A stretch of 64,000 nt of DNA, from NCBI GenBank assembly GCA_051047955.1, contig JBPGPT010000011.1, positions 186,001 through 250,000 on the forward strand, written 5' to 3'. A program made the translations under genes and the position numbers. The stretch is from Cystobasidiomycetes sp. EMM_F5. Taxonomy: Eukaryota. The notes under the pieces were generated by a model. It was not told where the DNA came from. It did not search any database and saw only the letters and a program-made list of their open reading frames with translations. This document shows, in pieces, positions 23,482 to 36,930 of this stretch; within the stretch, counting starts at the first letter, position 1, and each line of letters begins with the position of its first letter.

Positions 23482-26400
23482 TCATGCAGGCTTGCTATCT
23501 TGCAATTGTCGTGGTGTTTCTGTACTCAGATAGTCCATGATGGTCTCTTCCAAGAGCTTGAGGCGAACAGGTTTAGACAAATACCCGTCCATTCCTGCAG
23601 CTATACACCGCTCGCGATCTCCAGTGACGGCCGAGGCGGTCAGAGCAATAATCGTGGTATTGCGGATCCGTGAGTTGGTGGACTTGCGAATTTCTCGTGT
23701 CGCCGTCGCGCCGTCCATGATTGGCATATGCCAATCTAGCAGAAGAAGATCCCAGTCGCGCTCCTCAAGCGCATCTAGGGCTTCTTTACCATTGTTCACA
23801 GCGTGAATATTGAAGCCCATCCGTTTGATGCCTCTGACGAAAATTTCCTGATTCAACAAATTGTCTTCCGCTAAAAGAATCCAGATATCCTTGCGGACAA
23901 TCTCTTTTGGCACCGCCTTGCCAGCGTTTTCCCGTGCATCTTCCTGCACACTGGCTGGTGTGTCGGGAGCAAGATGGGCCTCTGTCATCATCGGACTGAG
24001 AGCAGTGTGCATTTGCGCTTTAGCATCAGGACTGAGACGTGCTCTTTCTGGAGTCGCTGAGCCAGCCGTTACTGTAGAGTCAGAACTACCTTTCGATTTC
24101 AAGGACTCGCGGCGTAGAAGGCCGGCTGGCAAGCGCAGATTTTTCCGGAACGGCACCACCACTGTGATCGATGTGCCTTTGCCCAGCTCCGAATCCATGG
24201 TAACGGTGCCGTCCATCATTTCGACTAGTCGCTTCGAGATTGCGAGACCCAGGCCGGTTCCGCCGTGTTCTCGAGAGGTTGTAGAATCCGCTTGTTGGAA
24301 AGGCTGGAAGAGCATCGGAATAACATTAGAGGCAATGCCGATGCCCGAGTCTTCAACAACAAATCGCGTCTCGACAGAATCTGCAGTTTCATTGTCCTGT
24401 TGGACCCGCAGGCGAATCAAACCTTGTTTTGTGAATTTAACAGAATTGGCCAGGAAGCTGCGAGTCCTCTGCTCAGTATAGTGTTGCGCATCTGACTTAA
24501 AAACACTCACTTCAACAGCACTTGGCGCATTCGAGGCAAGTCGCCCAAAATTTCGCCTTCGTACAAATTTGACCGTTCTTCGATGAACTTGAGACCTTTC
24601 TTTCGTGCGGCCGTTCTGAACATCGTAGTAGCGTCGGACACAAGGTCGGTCAGGACAAACGGTTGAATGTCCAATTCCTATGCAGAGACGAATCTCAGTG
24701 TAGCCCAAGTGCGCCAAGGTCGTACAGCTTACCAATTTACCGGCTTCCACTTTACCGATATCTAACACGTCTCCTACCATCTTGAGTAAGATTTCGCCAG
24801 ACTTCAGAATTTTGCGGACACTATCGTGCTGCGCCGGCGTCATATCTTCCTCTAGCAGTAATTCGGACATGCCAATCATGCCAGTAATCGGTGTGCGGAT
24901 CTCATGTGACAGATTCGCGGTGAATTCGCTCTTGAGTCTGCTCGCTTCTTTAGCTGCTGTTTCTGATGCTAGCAGGCGACTTTGCTCCTGGTACAATTGT
25001 TTGAGTGCTGCTTCCGCGGCTTTCAAATTGGTGATGTCGCGTGTCACAATAACAACGCCTTGTGGCACTTCCTCAGGTGAAGTCCGAAGCGGTGTAAGCT
25101 GTGTCGAGGCTGATTAAGCCTAGTGATAACAAGGCTCGGGAGTAACAAATTGCCTACCTCGCATCCAATCCACGTGCCCGGTGGGGTTTGTACGGACAGG
25201 CGTGCCGAATTGGCACCGTTCAATACTTCCGTGACATGCTGAATAAGTTCGGGACTGTCGATAATTCCTCCGAGATGTACGCCGATGGGCGAGGTTTCCG
25301 GCGAGACTCGCGCGACCCATCCCCCTCCTTCCATTAGTGTAATCTTGATGTCCTTGTCGACACAGATCAATGTGATGTTTGCGAGATCTATCACTCTTCG
25401 GAGGTTCCGGCTCGTATCTGCTAGCTGTTCCCGCAATTTGACGAACTCGTCAACATCTGTACACGTGCCGAACCAAGCCACAATTTTGCCATCTCCGTCC
25501 AGCAGAGACTGCGCACGACCGAGTTGCCAGCGCCATACTCCATCGTGTCGTCTGCACCGGTACTCCACACTATACGGTTCTCCAGTAGCCAACGAACGAC
25601 TCCAAGCTCGTCTGGAGTTGGGCATGTCATCAGGATGGAAAGGGTTCTGCCAATTGACGCCAAGCGACTGTTCTGGTTGCAATCCAGTATATGCATACCA
25701 TTTGTTATTGAAATAAATATGTTGCCCATCAGGCTTTGTGACCCAAACCATCTGAGGCATATTATTTATTATTTGCTGCCAAAAGGGATCGCTGCTAGCG
25801 TTAGTCGGCGACGGAGCAGGATAACCCGGAACAGCTGCCAAGGAACCCAGCATAGGAGAGGCGACAGATGCCTGACCCGGGCCGGCCACAGGTACTGTGG
25901 CAGTGACTAGACTCTCGCCAGTAATGTCTCGTAGCCATACAACACCGCCAATATGCTCGCCAGAGTTGCCTTTTAACGGCGCCGCTCGCACTTGGACCAG
26001 TCGCCTGCGCACCCGAATGGGCGCAATCGGTTTTGCAGAGTCTGTGCTTTCCGTCATGATTGTAAAGCATTCGCTATCGGGAAATCCGGAAACGTCAGGC
26101 GGTCCCACTTCCGTCTCGATACCAACAAGAATGGGAGCATCGGGTGGTTGTTGGCCTTTTCTGACGCACAAATCGAAAAGACGCTCGAAGGGATCTTCCA
26201 CGCGTTGCGAAAAGGACGTATCAAAGACTTTGTAGGGTTTTTGCGCAATCCAAGGTCGTGATGCTGCCCCATCGTCAAGCGGAGCCTTAGGCGCATCAAA
26301 CTTGGCTGATGCACTAGGTGCCGAAGGTGGCATGTTCGGGGTAGTCAGGCCAGAAACTGAGGGCGTTGGTGACTCTCCCGAGCGCGTGGATTGATCATCG

Positions 26401-28511
26401 CGGAACAGTCGAGTTTGCTGTCTGAATCGTCTACGCTTCAGCGACCAGCGTAGGATGTCAGACACGCTAGTAGCAAGATTCTCGCCTCGATCAGGCAAAT
26501 CTATCCGGATTTTATCATTGCCGTAGTAGAAATCGAGCTCGTCCTCCCATCCCGGTGAATCCCCAGGTACATCGTCGTAATCATCGTTTCGCTCGTCCTC
26601 TTCATCGATCTGTTCTTGAATAACGGATGTAGCTGCCAGGCCACTTCGGAAATGACTTGCGTTGCCACCTGCTGCGAGATTGTGCACGCTGGGACGATGC
26701 ATCCGCGTAGCGCTTCGCCTTGGTGCTTGCCAATTATCATCAAATGGATCTGAAATTTCAGTACTAGGTGATTTGATGCCCATCAGCAACTCCCTTGTAC
26801 GCGAATTGATGAACCCGCTAGACAAGTCACGGCGAGATATCAAAACGCCTGTTCGGGGATGTGCAGCCAGAGCAGATTGCGCGAGGCCTGCACTAGCTTC
26901 CATCATATCCAAAGACACGGCGCTGCTTCGCTTGAGATCGCCCGATCCAGCGCTGTGGACTGAAGACGGTCGACCATCCAGAGCAGTCGATATGCCCGTC
27001 TCTGAGGATGACGGAGGAATCGCCATTCGACCGCTGCCTGCGCTTGCGCTGCCGCTGCCACTACCGCTCGCGCTCGCGCTTCCAAAACTGAGACTGTTTG
27101 ATCGCTTAGAGCCGCCAGACATTCCTGATCCAGAGCGCGAACCTGATCCACCACTACTGTTGCGCAGGAACGGCGGAGCGGTAAATACGGCAGGCTCGTC
27201 ATCAATGTCAAAATAAGTCGAGGGAGCGGTAGCCGTTACGGCATGTCTGAATGGCATTGGCGTTTCTCCCCCTGTAGACGCCTTTCGCGGCAACAGGGAT
27301 GGTCTAGCGATAGCGTCTGATTGGACTTCATCGGGGTGGCGCAAGATTCCACCTGGGGAGTCTCGCAAAAACTGAGTCCGATGTGCCGGCGACATCTCTG
27401 GCGTTGGTGATTTGTCCACACCATCTTGAGGTAATATACCCAAACCTGACGGCTCCATACGCTGGGAAGCAATAGTTGCTGCTGTTACCAACTCTTCTGC
27501 TTTGCTCCTCTCCGACATGGCAGACATGGCTGCCGAGAAACCGGGCGGGAAGGTCGAGCTGGCGGTGGAAGAGGTCTGCGAGCCGGTAGAGGATGATAGA
27601 GCTGAAGGTGACGTTGCAGACGAAGGAGATCGAGTCATGCCGGCGGACAGGGGCGGCGGTCCTACGTTGATTGGTGGGGGAACTGCACTCTCCAATGCCG
27701 CTCGTAGCGAGATGCTTCCTGTCGAAGGAGTATGTCGATGCGATTTCGGGACGACGTCTGCGCCGTCCTGACTCTTTGAAGACCGTACGCTTGGGCGAAG
27801 CGGCACATTTGACGGTGCTTGATTCTGCTGTTGCTGCGACAGAGTCGACGCGTGAGAAGCCTTTCTCCTGTCCAACGTTGCTCCAAATATCTTTCGTATA
27901 TCTCCTGAATGACGCTTGATGACTGCCGGAAGGGAGTGCGAGTGCGAGGCTGCATTCGCCGAGGTCGGCGTTGACGGGCTCTGGCCGGTGCTCGAGACTG
28001 TCGGCGAGGCGGTCGTCGTGTCTACAGAGCCGCGCGAGGATGTACGGTCGAGTGCAGTTATGCCAGATATGCTCGGGTCGCCTGCGGTATTGCTGTTGCT
28101 GCTGGCAATGTCCTTGCGAGGCATGCGGGGGCTCGTCTGCAGCGGACCGTGGATTGACGGCCCAGGGTTCTGGATGAGGACTGAAACGTCGACGATGAGC
28201 ATAGACCTGAGCAGCCCGTCGCCGTTTGACGTGTAGACTGCCGCCTTGAGCTTCAAGAACTCTTGCGAACTCTGCACTTTCGCCCGGAGAATCTCCAAGT
28301 GGCCCTCATGCTTGGGTTTGCCGGCGAGCAGCTCTGGCGGGATGGCAGCGTCTGGCGGGAACAGGGCTTCGTACGAGTAGACGTCGAGGTTGCTGTCGAC
28401 GAGCCCCAGGAGGACTCTGGCTCCCGCGTTTGCCGTTCGCAGCTTGTCCCCCGAGAAGAGCAGGAAGGGCAGGCTGATGAGCTCAATGTCGACGGTTGGC
28501 GGTGGGGCCAT
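23482..28511 (-). CDS. Cytoplasmic hybrid sensor histidine kinase (PAS-HisKA-HATPase-REC)
   Basis: PAS (NMPQMVWVTKPDG...WQNPFHPDD...RRHDGVWRW...WFGTCTDV), H-box SHEIRTP, N-box NSVKFT, DSGIGI, GGTGLGL and receiver LLAEDN/LLDWHMPIMDG/SKPV; long Ser-rich N-terminus. Confidence 0.93.
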
Positions 28512-29269
28512 GCTGGGGCTATTGACGCTGTGACTGCGCTATATGCTGTGGTATGCTCGCCGTCCGCTCATTCACTGCCGTCCATGGTGTGTTGTAATGG
28601 CTTTCGAGAGAAAAGTAACTCAGCTCACTGGAGGGTCAGAGTAAACTTCAGATGACTAAGCTGCGCAAATCTGAACCCGTCCTGTCACTTGCGGAGACGA
28701 AAACATGGCAGACACAGGGCAATGTGCATGTATCCACTAGTGTTGATGGTTAATGCCCTCTACGCTTGTATTCCGTCTCATCGCCCGCCGCTAGCTGCGA
28801 CGCGAAGACCCGCAACAGAACAGTCTGTACCCTCCTGTCCTCTTCTCATCCTTGTTCCTCTGCATTCCGTGGCCGTACGCAGACTACTGAGCCTCACTTG
28901 TATCCCCTCACCTCTCTTCAGGAACGCGTCATCTCGCTCGCTTCCTGCTCCGTCCATGCCAATAATGTACTATAGCGACTACAGACCGTGTCCAAGCATC
29001 ATACCGATTAGCCCAATCTACGCTTCAGACCCTTATTGTAGAGGCTCTCTACTCACGGACTCAATATGGCGGCCCAGGATCGGTCTGTTCAGAGGTCCCT
29101 TTCGGCGTGTTTTGACGGCCATCAGTTGTCCGCCCCAGCCAGGCATGCTTGTGTTATATTCGTTGATCCCAGACTGTGCAGACGATCATATTGTGACACA
29201 CTGCTGGGTTTTTGCCAAGCTCCCGGCAACTTGCGACCAGTCTGATTCCTATCTGAAGAGGCATTTGGA

Positions 29270-29671
29270 TTATGCAGAGGCTTTGGGTTGCAGCAGATCC
29301 CAGCGATTCCCGTACAAATCCTCAAATACGGCCACCGTAGCGTAAGTTTCTTCCCGAGGCTCTTCTAGGAAGTGCACACCCCGGGCTTGCAGAGCGCGGT
29401 AGTCGCGCCAAAAGTCATCTGTTGTGAGGAAGAGGAATACCCGGCCGCCAGTCTGGTCGCTCACCCTATCCAACTGCGTCGGGCCATCAGCCTTAGCCAG
29501 TAGTAGAGCAGCGCCAGAGGAGCTACCGGGCGGTACAACCAGCACCCAGCGCTTTCCATCGCCCAGAGCCGTATCAGCGAGAAGCCGGAAGCCCATCTTT
29601 TCGACGTAGAAGGTCAGTGCCTCGTCGTAGTCGCGTACTAGTAGAGCGACGTGAGCTATCTGCTGATTCAT
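29270..29671 (-). CDS. VOC/glyoxalase-bleomycin resistance family protein, intronless, bacterial-type (133 aa)
   Basis: MNQQIAHVALLVRDYDEALTFYVEKMGF...KRWVLVVPPG...LLLAKA...QTGGRVFLFLTTDDFWRDY...GVHFLEEPREETYATVAVFEDLYGNRWDLLQ. Confidence 0.92.
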   Translation of the reverse strand: MNQQIAHVALLVRDYDEALTFYVEKMGFRLLADTALGDGKRWVLVVPPGSSSGAALLLAKADGPTQLDRVSDQTGGRVFLFLTTDDFWRDYRALQARGVHFLEEPREETYATVAVFEDLYGNRWDLLQPKASA

Positions 29672-29823
29672 GATGTTATTGCAGTAGAGGTGGTGCCAAA
29701 TGCAAGCCCTGCCCCGCAAAGGGGTGAGAACGATGACTAATCAACGCGTCCCAAGACAACTGCGGTATAACGTTACGGAATAGATTAAATGTCGGATAAC
29801 AATGTCATGTATTCACTGCTACC

Positions 29824-31390
29824 TTACTGCTCTTCACGGCTACACTTGTATACCCAATAGTCCCACCTCATCCACCGGCACGGAGCAGATCCAAACATGA
29901 CCTGAACTTCAGACTTGAAGCGGGGACGGCTGGCATCACCGGAGGACCGGTACGCTCCTTCATCCCGTGCATCCGCTTCTTCGGCGCTGGCTAAGCCACC
30001 CCTCCCTTGTTCCTCCTCGCGCGCAGCCAACTGCGCCTCCAAGTCCCGCAAAAGCGCAGTTTGTTCCCGTTCATCCTCCTCATCCTCGTCTTCCTCTTCT
30101 TCGTCAGTTGTGGTTGTCGTACACACTAGCCTCTCCCTCTCCCCGCTCTCTTCGGCCATTCTACGCAATCGCTTCCTTCTCCGTCCGTGCCACCCGCATG
30201 TCACAAAGTTCGCCCACCATCGCCTACTCTCCTTTCGTCTTTTCGCTCTCGCTCTAGCTTCCCTCGCTTCAAGCTGTTTTCTGACCAGCTCGCGGTAGGT
30301 CGTCTGACCATCCTTGCTCGCCCCGTACGTCAGATAAAAGGTCCGGGATGGGGAAGGAGCAGTCTTGCTGGGCATCAGTAGTGGAGCATACAGTGAAGCA
30401 GGCGTAGATGCTCTGGAAATGTACATTCCCGCTGTCGAGGCATCATCCATGTCTGATCCGAATATTGAGCCAGAGCGAGAAAGAGGGTTGGAGGAAGGAC
30501 GTCGGCTGCTTGAAGTCGCAGACATGGCCATGAGCGGTTGCTGTTGTTGGCTGCTCTGACCAAAAGATAGGCTGTGCGGACGCCCGATGCCGATACCGTG
30601 AAAGTACGAAGGCACGGGTGAAGTGATGGCAGGGCCGTCGCTCGAGGGAAACGTGTAGCCGGCTGGCGGACCATTCACAGAGGCGACACTGCGCACGCTT
30701 CCACGACGCAATTTCTCGTGCAAGTCTACTCCGCTCCGGATACCTCCACATATTCGAACGGTATCTGCAAATGCAATTCGTCCAAAGTTGCTGCCCAGCG
30801 TATCGCCCCCCTCCCCGTCTGCATGTCCATCCTCGCCGTCACTGGCACTCCTATTGCGAGCGCTCTGTAAGGGCGTTGAGGGCCTTGAACGAGACCGCTG
30901 AATAGAACCGTAAGAAGACCGTCTGTCCGACTTGGGCTTCTCTGTACGGGAGACACGTCTCGAATTGGCTGAGGCCGAGTTGAATCCAGAAGAAGCATGT
31001 CCGCTATCCGCTGAAGCTAGCGTAGTTGCTATTTCTTTTCTTCGAGCCCGCCTACTCTGAGACATGGGCTGCGTCTGCTCGCCGTTTACCGTGTCGAAGG
31101 TCGTCTCCCTGGTCACGTCGTACAGTAAACAAGCCGTGTCGTTATCGTCTGGCGTATCTCGCGCAATGTCATCATGTTGGACGATCCACGTACGTCGTCC
31201 ATCATTGTCATCATCACTTGCACTGTCCTCTGGCGATAGCACTGCGAGAGGTGAGCTCTCCCTTCGTGGCCGGGGCACAGTCAGTCGACCAAGCCCATCG
31301 CGGGATTGGAGCACGCCGCTAGAAGCTGTCCGCGACCGTTGCTGGAGGAGGGCAAGTCGACGTTCTACGTGCCGATAAAGTACCGTTCAT
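29824..31390 (-). CDS. Hypothetical low-complexity protein (Ser/Arg-rich, acidic tract)
   Basis: 496-codon open frame 29824-31314; probable ATG exon at 31390; no recognisable domain. Confidence 0.6.
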
Positions 31391-32144
31391 AATGATGACC
31401 CGTCGTGTCCAAACAAGTCAATATTTAGCCCGTATTCGTTACGATAACCGGCCATCCAATTCTACATACCTAAATGCTCGATATGTCGCTCAGACTCAGT
31501 CTGCACGGTCGTCCACTTCGGCTTGTCCTGCCGGTCAGCTGCACCACTCGTCGGCCAGGAGTGGTCCAGTTCAGCGGACACGATGCTTCCAGACGGCGGT
31601 GTCCTGCTCCGTTGCTGGCTGTTCTCTGAAGCTATCGATACTCTTCGCCCAGTCTGGTTTCTCACAGAAGCGGTGCGCGAGCCGGGTATGCGGTCATTTT
31701 CCGTCATGATTGCCCAAGTTCAGCCCAGCTCAGCCTAATTGGCAGCAATTATACGTTTGATCCTGTAGCAGCAAGTATGCATATTGCAGGTTATGTCGAG
31801 TCGGCGATGGTCGGAAAGCCAACGCGTTCAATCCGGAATTCTGACTTCATTGCGAGATTATATCGCGGCTTGGGCTTTCACTGACTCTGACCGTCATGGA
31901 CATCCTTCCCAGCCCATATTATGAATTCTTCGTCTACCTCGAGCCATTCCTGACCGTGATTGTATGCTTAATATGCAAAGGTCGGCTTGGTGTCGCCCGA
32001 ATTTCTAACGAGCAATCTTTAAATAGGGCATGCTCTGGGGGCTGATCAATCCAGTCACATATCATCACGCTCTCACGGCGTCGTCTAGCCTCGTTCCACC
32101 GAGCTCCGCCGCAATCATGGCAATACGCCAGCTCGCAAACGTAT

Positions 32145-35848: not shown

Positions 35849-36930
35849 CTATACCTTCTTAACAATCTTGCTTGGAACGGTCCAAAAGGAGAAAGCTACG
35901 ACAAGTCGAATGGCAGTACCGATGCCGAGAGACGCCGCTCCGCCGATGTAGTTGATGATTATCCGACTGATCAGAGCTCCTAGAAGCAGCATGAATACTG
36001 CAGCTGCTCGATGATCACGGGATGCGACCAGACGCGGTTTGAGCAAGCCTGGATCTGCCGCCAATTCCGTCCAAATCGTAGTCAGCACGACAGTCGTGCC
36101 ATAGTGAGTGTTGAGACGTTTGGCCGCAATGGCTTGCAAACCCATGGAGCCAGATATGAAAGCTATCGTGACAAACCCAAGCGCATTGTCCCAAGGAATA
36201 TCGCCTCTATCAGGAGCGATTGAAGAAGCGTCCGAAATGATATCAGCGAGGAAACCAATAAACATGGCTCCAGTCTGCGCAAACGTGACGCCAATGAGCC
36301 ACCATCGCTTCTTGGGCCCAAGACGGTCGCCAAGCTGACCACCGAGGAGAGAGCCGAGAACAAACGAGCATAGCGATGTTAGAGCGAGCCGGTCTGCCGG
36401 ATGGAAGTAGGTTGTCCGGTCTGGACCAGAGAATATGCGAGCGATGGCTGCGGCTAGTTGTACTACATTTCCTCTGTATAACAAACGCTTGTCAGAATAG
36501 AATAACTTTCCAGCAGTACCGTAGGTCATAGTCCGCACGTCTGGAAGCCCGAGAAGAGGAAAGCGGCTGCAAATGAGACAGCATCCACCCAGCCAGTAAT
36601 GAAGCAGTATGCCAGCAGCTGGTAAGTGCACTGCAAGCTGTAATTATCAGGTTTTGAACAGCTCGCCGCCACTATCACGCAATGTCCAAATGGCTGCAGC
36701 CATACCTGAGCTGGGTCGACTTCTCCGTCAAGGTGTTTCCATATCCGTCTGAGCAGCGAATCTTGAGGGTGAACTGCTGCCGTACTCTCTGGCTCGGTGT
36801 ACGATAGCTTATTCGACTGCTGTGCGAAGTTGTTGCCGCCCAGCTCTACGTCTTGACCATTCTCGGAGGCTAGCTGGTCGGCCGCAGCTTGATTCGCAGT
36901 ATCCACGCCATACGCCGGCGCAGCACTCAT
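35849..36930 (-). CDS. DUF1275/YoaK-like membrane protein
   Basis: CFITGWVDAVSF...FSGFQT-GNVVQL, SLCSFVLGSLLGG, SMGLQAIAAKRL, TTVVLTTIW and SRDHR. Confidence 0.85.

Follow-up and report, generated by a model that had tools for sequence, protein, structure and literature searches.

The window analysed here is a 64,000-nucleotide stretch of contig JBPGPT010000011.1 from the basidiomycete yeast Cystobasidiomycetes sp. EMM_F5 (assembly GCA_051047955.1), an unclassified member of the class Cystobasidiomycetes. Between a hybrid histidine kinase gene and a 496-amino-acid open reading frame (ORF), it carries a short, intronless gene for a VOC/glyoxalase-fold protein, hereafter the VOC gene, whose closest relatives belong to the bacterial genus Hymenobacter. 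The reading that we favor, and hold with good confidence, is an old transfer of this gene from a Hymenobacter-like bacterium into a phyllosphere yeast lineage, where it has probably been kept by selection.

The first-pass annotation of this DNA had described a compact, intron-free ORF of 133 amino acids placed between a histidine kinase and a hypothetical gene. Both the ORF and its placement are borne out, the latter by the ORF list and Pfam, and the four motif strings quoted for the protein are all present in its translation; the sole correction to that observation is the strand, which is minus. The ORF is a real gene. Its exact protein is recorded in NCBI and Logan, and its initiating ATG (at 29671) corresponds to residue 1 of the bacterial proteins in the alignment. 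A longer, 149-amino-acid reading from a TTG at 29719 is unneeded, and its exact sequence is absent from the protein collection. The protein scores 73.2 bits on PF00903 (Glyoxalase/Bleomycin resistance/Dioxygenase), whose cut-off is 20.6 (E 3.1e-20), and the match runs from residue 4 to 125 and over profile positions 1–120 of 121. Bacterial proteins of 129–151 amino acids align over 96–100% of its length with E values of 1e-54 to 1e-66, a similarity that, judged from sequence, is far beyond chance.

In bacteria of the Hymenobacter type, this gene has a constant address. Twelve such loci, comprising three named Hymenobacter, one metagenome-assembled genome (MAG) labelled Janthinobacterium lividum and eight metagenome contigs, carry it directly after hisF (261 amino acids, 92–98% identical among loci). 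In 11 of the 12, hisIE (224 amino acids, 80–86% identical) follows directly; the remaining locus, L081, ends at the VOC gene. Pfam identifies these neighbors as hisF and hisIE, with an HAD hydrolase and hisA farther upstream, so that the operon reads hisA, unknown, HAD hydrolase, hisF, VOC, hisIE (L001:941-5139; also L002, L003, L007, L081-L084, L086, L088, L089 and L131). Sequence comparison thus presents the VOC gene as a stable component of the histidine operon in Hymenobacter that is inherited vertically. Within these loci the VOC gene diverges faster than hisF, with 73–95% protein identity over nine pairs compared.

One of the 12 loci, L003 (JBPBQJ010000122.1; also P0029, P0054 and P0116), comes from the MAG labelled Janthinobacterium lividum (Pseudomonadota). 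It has the Hymenobacter his-operon gene order, and its hisF shares 95% identity with the hisF of H. ginsengisoli. From its sequence, this contig or bin looks like mislabelled or mis-binned Hymenobacter.

Searches for relatives of the protein lead to the same genus. A collection of 5.8 billion proteins yielded at least 8000 candidates at E ≤ 0.001, and we examined the best 119 besides the query; these are 69–80% identical to it and cover 96–100% of its length. An organism is named for 13 of these 119: nine are Hymenobacter, three are MAGs labelled Janthinobacterium lividum and one is a Cytophagaceae MAG, so that none of the 13 is eukaryotic. Hymenobacter (Bacteroidota) proteins share 75–80% identity with the yeast protein, and named bacteria outside that genus 71% at most. 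Of 592 pattern matches in prokaryote genomes, sampled at one per species, 569 encode relatives. H. ginsengisoli (77%) leads these genomes, followed by Hymenobacter sp. UV11 (75%), the MAG labelled J. lividum (74%) and H. ginkgonis (71%), and below these come many phyla, Pseudomonadota included, at 57–71%. The top loci from JGI metagenomes are 75–78% identical, and the closest ESM Atlas clusters are 93–100% Bacteria. The bacterial character of the gene, as first annotated, is therefore upheld, with its nearest relatives in Bacteroidota; the closeness to Bacteroidota and Proteobacteria that had been suggested there resolves into Hymenobacter first and then mixed phyla that include Pseudomonadota.

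We considered the best unnamed hits, P0002-P0009, as possible fungal orthologs and rejected them. They are 79–91% identical to Hymenobacter his-operon proteins and 78–80% identical to the yeast protein, and they sit on short branches; being closer to the his-operon proteins than to the yeast protein, the six best unnamed hits are bacterial too.

In a FastTree phylogeny of 278 rows, the yeast protein falls inside a 122-row clade with local support of 95. Four of the five named Hymenobacter locus rows lie inside this clade, with H. nivis (L054_x) outside. A quick tree of 147 rows recovers the same clade with support of 88, the position of the yeast protein within it being unresolved. For a more careful tree (IQ-TREE, LG+C20+F+G4; 60 rows, 135 columns), the rows were picked after the earlier trees, 50 from the 122-row clade (the yeast protein included) and 10 from the 156 rows outside it, and the group submitted to the approximately unbiased (AU) test was likewise named after viewing the tree. 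Here the yeast protein and the Hymenobacter clade are split from nine outgroup rows with support of 98/93. On these sequence data the VOC gene belongs with the Hymenobacter clade; the AU test leaves undecided whether it is nested within that clade or sister to it. One of the 10 rows picked from outside the clade, L046:4001-4384 (Phenylobacterium sp. LjRoot97), has an end branch of 1.32 and moves from the outgroup in the quick tree to the inside of the Hymenobacter clade in the careful tree. Long-branch effects are the probable cause of this shift, which gives no firm indication of where L046 came from.

Because the VOC gene is native to the his operon in 12 loci and its family extends across many bacterial phyla, the direction of transfer is from bacterium to fungus. 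Such a transfer, as the first-pass annotation proposed, is the best explanation for a gene with bacterial relatives and eukaryotic flanks. The same annotation had called the transfer recent, which the divergence and composition of the gene do not support. No sampled bacterium exceeds 77.7% nucleotide identity to the VOC gene (blastn). Pairwise synonymous divergence (dS) between the yeast gene and 13 orthologs is 0.96–2.7, a fourteenth being not computable; among the nearest Hymenobacter sequences, dS is 0.4–0.7. The GC content of third codon positions (GC3) is 0.604 in the VOC gene, compared with a median of 0.77 (range 0.66–0.86) in the 12 closest orthologs and 0.49–0.55 in six long host ORFs. 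A codon score, the log-likelihood per codon under host versus Hymenobacter codon tables, gives a similar picture: +0.09 for the VOC gene, a mean of +0.35 for 28 host chunks (sd 0.11, minimum 0.017), a mean of −0.29 for 60 bacterial chunks and −0.39 to −0.06 for all 14 orthologs. GC3 and codon usage intermediate between donor and host are expected after a long stay in a fungal genome.

The coding sequence also looks maintained, as suggested by a ratio of nonsynonymous to synonymous divergence (dN/dS) of 0.09–0.16 against the 13 orthologs (bacterial range 0.05–0.20) and by the alteration of only 2 (L26M and G71S) of the 62 columns in which the family is at least 90% conserved. By departures at conserved columns the protein is unremarkable, at rank 21 (zero-based, most departures first) of 45 rows. 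When three orthologs were carried to the observed divergence by simulated unconstrained substitution, the frame stayed open in 5–9% of 2000 runs each, and the simulated protein identity, at most 0.64, never reached the observed 0.76–0.77.

Several observations weigh against the reading of an old and selected transfer. The yeast protein joins the six most identical unnamed hits (P0002/4/5/6/7/9) only weakly, at 84/56. Grouping with a bacterial clade is supported; nesting inside Hymenobacter is not shown, since a clade of the 49 other rows that excludes the yeast protein is not rejected (delta lnL 3.49, p-AU 0.41). Because nested and sister positions are not separated, the donor may belong to an unsampled sister lineage. 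The end branch of the yeast protein is long, at 0.44 against a median of 0.14, and the protein carries 11–16 unique residue changes against 2–9 in bacterial comparators. Relative-rate tests exceed 3.84 in 8 of 18 cases, with outgroups that are assumed and not firmly resolved by the tree. The excess of unique changes would fit some acceleration after transfer, and it could also be partial relaxation of constraint. The dN/dS values and the simulation span the whole path, its bacterial part included; they speak for a maintained function in the yeast and are not in themselves proof of selection there. Some family members are themselves low in GC3 (0.55–0.66), so that an unsampled low-GC3 donor could mimic amelioration. 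Fungal homologs below about 69% identity lie outside the reach of the searches. Finally, the assembly is built from short reads only, and the linkage of the gene to its neighbors is known from that assembly alone.

These same observations give some room to the best-surviving alternative, in which the transfer is real and fairly recent but the yeast copy is a passenger that is silent or decaying. Its intact look would then be due only to divergence that built up mostly beforehand, in bacterial donors that remain unsampled. The long end branch and surplus of unique changes, the undecided nested or sister position (which permits an unsampled divergent donor) and the existence of family members with GC3 of 0.55–0.66 all favor it, as does a start codon that lies just 152 nt past the stop codon of the upstream gene. 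However, the codon score of the VOC gene is more host-like than those of all 14 bacterial orthologs, its GC3 is below that of the 12 closest, its frame is open at the exact family length with so few conserved columns altered, and an A occupies position −3 of its ATG. We consider the passenger scenario unlikely, though the strongest of the rivals.

Under the favored reading of an old, selected transfer, the donor would have been a Hymenobacter-like bacterium (Bacteroidota, Hymenobacteraceae) with the VOC gene between hisF and hisIE. A single gene would have moved, of which the coding sequence alone was retained, and it would have inserted into a 1.3-kb gap between two fungal genes on the same strand. 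Its synonymous sites would since have come near saturation relative to every sampled bacterium, and its composition and codon usage would have shifted about two thirds of the way toward the host, while frame, length and nearly all family-conserved residues were retained; over that length of time, such retention would make it probable that the gene is expressed and selected in the yeast.

Table 1. Features at and around the VOC gene (positions in the 64,000-nt window)
Feature	Positions	Strand	Remarks
Hybrid histidine kinase, with introns	23485-28511	-	Pfam PAS, HisKA, HATPase_c, Response_reg
Spacer of 758 nt, VOC stop to kinase ATG	28512..29269	-	would contain the kinase promoter along with the 3' end of the VOC gene
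VOC/glyoxalase-fold gene	29270..29671	-	133 codons plus stop, no intron; ATG 29669-29671, TAA 29270-29272
Spacer of 152 nt, upstream ORF stop to VOC ATG	29672..29823	-	presumed promoter or 5' leader; A at -3 of ATG
ORF of 496 aa, low complexity, without Pfam match	29824-31314	-	GC3 0.553, like other host ORFs; its stop codon is separated from the VOC ATG by 152 nt

The flanks are eukaryotic on either side of the VOC gene (Table 1). The best named relatives of the kinase PAS region are from Cystobasidium minutum (63%), followed by Sporobolomyces, Rhodotorula, Mixia and Microbotryum, all of them Pucciniomycotina basidiomycetes, and an NCBI protein of Cystobasidiomycetes sp. EMM_F5 aligns to 28511-23485 with ∼100% identity and intron-like gaps. 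Farther out lie a fungal-type TRP channel (PF06011), a protein O-mannosyltransferase (PMT) and an Arm repeat on one side, and a septin, an aconitase divided between two ORFs, part of an arginase and DUF7330 on the opposite side. The first-pass claim that essentially every other gene in the window has introns was followed by a spot-check only, which agrees with it as far as it goes: the kinase has intron-like gaps, and aconitase, arginase and septin are represented by ORFs that hold parts of their domains, a pattern that split genes would produce.

Three further observations concern this neighborhood. With 152 nt between the upstream ORF and its ATG (29672-29823), the VOC gene may rely on read-through or on a very short promoter. 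Unnamed metagenome proteins (P0127-P0131) are 70–76% identical to the kinase PAS region, closer than the 63% of any named fungus, so that unsequenced relatives of the yeast exist in public metagenomes. A 260-amino-acid ORF at 35849-36631 (minus strand) matches DUF1275 (PF06912, E 1.5e-21), a family that is mostly bacterial with scattered fungal members.

The bacterial similarity is confined to the VOC ORF. When positions 28000–31000 were compared by blastn with 160 loci, there were 144 matches, and all of the 40 listed fall within 29275-29673; tblastx of positions 27000–32000 against the 14 nearest loci gave 116 matches, all within 29270-29680 save one low-complexity match of 23 amino acids. 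Neither program found similarity to hisF or hisIE around the VOC gene, although in the bacteria both lie within about 60 bp of it. Around the insert we found no repeats or target-site duplications, only pairs of 12–24 nt at chance level. In the assembled sequence the gene is linked to eukaryotic genes on both sides. Two sequencing runs with a small share of the window (0.05) contribute six small pieces: two contigs, of 251 and 258 bases, match the flanking genes exactly, the others are short low-complexity matches, and all six lie outside 28170-29777.

These junctions bear on a second alternative, that Hymenobacter reads were mis-joined into a fungal contig by contamination or chimeric assembly. 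The genome of EMM_F5, a yeast isolated from Magnolia grandiflora leaves, was obtained from a single-colony culture on rifampicin and chloramphenicol by Illumina 2x151 sequencing at 142x, assembled with SPAdes into 18.6 Mb and screened with FCS-GX; EMM_F5 has no sister taxon among 27 genomes of its class and is possibly the first sequenced member of its family, and the announcement makes no mention of gene transfer (PMC12697161). A short-read-only assembly and a Hymenobacter presence in the same leaf habitat would both favor a chimera. Against this, the bacterial-like stretch is exactly one ORF, free of hisF and hisIE, so that two precise breakpoints would be needed inside a 547-kb contig; single-colony culture on two antibiotics, 142x coverage and the FCS-GX screen also speak against it. 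In addition, a chimera would carry bacterial codon usage, whereas the codon usage of the ORF is unlike that of the orthologs, and its DNA is at most 77.7% identical to sampled bacteria. We regard this explanation as very improbable.

Least likely of all is vertical inheritance of an old fungal gene with loss in most fungi, or transfer from fungus to Hymenobacter. In its favor are possible fungal homologs below about 69% identity, a range beyond the searches, and one ESM Atlas cluster that is 93% bacterial, which leaves 7% of the members on record as something else. Against it stand 75–80% identity to one bacterial genus and the 98/93 grouping, an address within the his operon that is fixed across 12 loci of Hymenobacter type, the spread of the family across many bacterial phyla, an intronless gene among split neighbors, and the best 119 matches, in which none of the 13 rows with an organism name is eukaryotic.

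The fold of the protein is predicted with confidence. An AlphaFold model made from a 45-row alignment has a pLDDT of 93.1 and a pTM of 0.85, with a predicted order of strands (E) and helices (H), E H E E E / H E H E E, that forms the paired beta-alpha-beta-beta-beta modules of the VOC fold. A fold search of the PDB returned 391 matches at E ≤ 0.001, and all those listed are VOC-fold proteins. The top relatives by fold are TnmS1, TnmS2 and UcmS2 (TM 0.79–0.84) and TnmS3 (0.75), at 28–34% identity, and TnmS1/2/3 and UcmS2 are also the top PDB relatives by sequence (E 2e-13 to 1e-10); the Ni/Zn glyoxalase GloA2 has a TM of 0.74 to the model. VOC metalloenzymes use His and Glu as metal ligands. 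The alignment of 45 family members has 30 invariant columns, and histidine is absent from the columns conserved to 90% or more; the His at position 7 is confined to the Hymenobacter group and varies outside it. Because the subfamily lacks a conserved histidine, a classical role as a Ni/Zn glyoxalase I, or as an Fe or extradiol dioxygenase, is unlikely from sequence. None of six matched NCBIfam models reaches its cut-off, glyoxalase I (TIGR00068) scoring 24 bits against 120, and the bleomycin-binding model PF22677 Ble-like_N is missed at 16.1 against 24.5 bits.

Small VOC proteins are usually homodimers, and by analogy the yeast protein might act in the cytosol as a dimer, binding or altering some small organic molecule, whether toxin or metabolite, a proposal that we think somewhat more likely to be wrong than right even in kind. 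With low confidence, detoxification or tolerance on the leaf surface would be its likeliest use, since the closest solved relatives sequester toxic natural products: TnmS1/2/3 and UcmS2 of Streptomyces are described as resistance proteins that sequester anthraquinone-fused enediynes (PMC9854587). These proteins (PDB 5umq, 5umw, 5w27 and 6cky) are, like the yeast protein, single-domain VOC proteins of about 130 amino acids. However, their genes belong to enediyne biosynthetic clusters; the bacterial VOC orthologs are found between hisF and hisIE, and the yeast copy between a kinase gene and the 496-amino-acid ORF, so that the likeness is one of fold and sequence. The functional reading leans on fold resemblance at ∼30% identity, and the operon that houses the bacterial gene is a histidine operon, not a toxin gene cluster, and gives no obvious functional clue.

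The his-operon VOC genes of H. ginsengisoli (L001) and Hymenobacter sp. UV11 (L002) are the closest match to the yeast gene: they have the same length, are 75–77% identical and fall in the same clade, and all 30 invariant and 60 of the 62 near-invariant family columns are common to both. They differ in setting, the yeast gene standing alone between the kinase and the 496-amino-acid ORF and the bacterial genes among his genes, and in composition, with GC3 of 0.60 in the yeast and 0.74–0.80 in Hymenobacter and with codon usage in the yeast shifted toward the host.

Transfer of such a gene is unsurprising in itself, because single bacterial genes in fungi are well documented, VOC genes included. 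In Kluyveromyces lactis, KLLA0C09218g is described as a bacterial-origin gene of the glyoxalase/bleomycin-resistance family in a conserved synteny block (PMC2715888). It resembles the yeast gene in being one small intronless VOC-family gene of bacterial descent between native genes; it differs in having an ascomycete host and nearest bacteria (Xanthomonas and Sphingomonas) at 39–44% identity, and the likeness drawn here is by description only. In Valsa mali, HGT14 and HGT32 are reported as acquired bleomycin-resistance proteins that, as deletion showed, help in tolerating a bacterial toxin (PMC5025739). These too are horizontally gained VOC-superfamily genes in a fungus, with a role of the sort proposed here, but they belong to PF12681 (Glyoxalase_2), and the yeast protein misses the Ble-like_N cut-off. 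Full-text searches on gene transfer in Cystobasidiomycetes and in Pucciniomycotina, and on the strain name, turned up no report of transfer of this gene.

We initially entertained a lichen-associated yeast, several of the nearest bacteria having lichen-related names; this idea was dropped because the host is a leaf isolate. Hymenobacter is described as a core phyllosphere genus that co-occurs with leaf yeasts (PMC9674006), and with Hymenobacter on leaves and the yeast isolated from them, donor and recipient plausibly met there. Considered together, these data allow a bolder proposal, which we think less likely than not: an adaptive capture of a VOC protein from a Hymenobacter housekeeping operon by a Microsporomycetaceae-like yeast, in which the gene has long been selected and protects against a toxic small molecule from leaf bacteria or from the plant by binding or inactivating it.

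If that proposal is right, the gene would offer a first way into the function of a bacterial VOC subfamily that is highly conserved and very widespread, with members 57–80% identical in many phyla, and that to our knowledge has so far gone uncharacterised. A yeast with the VOC gene alone, away from the operon, would be a simple genetic system for finding the subfamily's function. The donor genus and the recipient share the leaf-surface habitat, and once relatives of the yeast are sequenced, the gene could serve as a lineage marker able to date the transfer.

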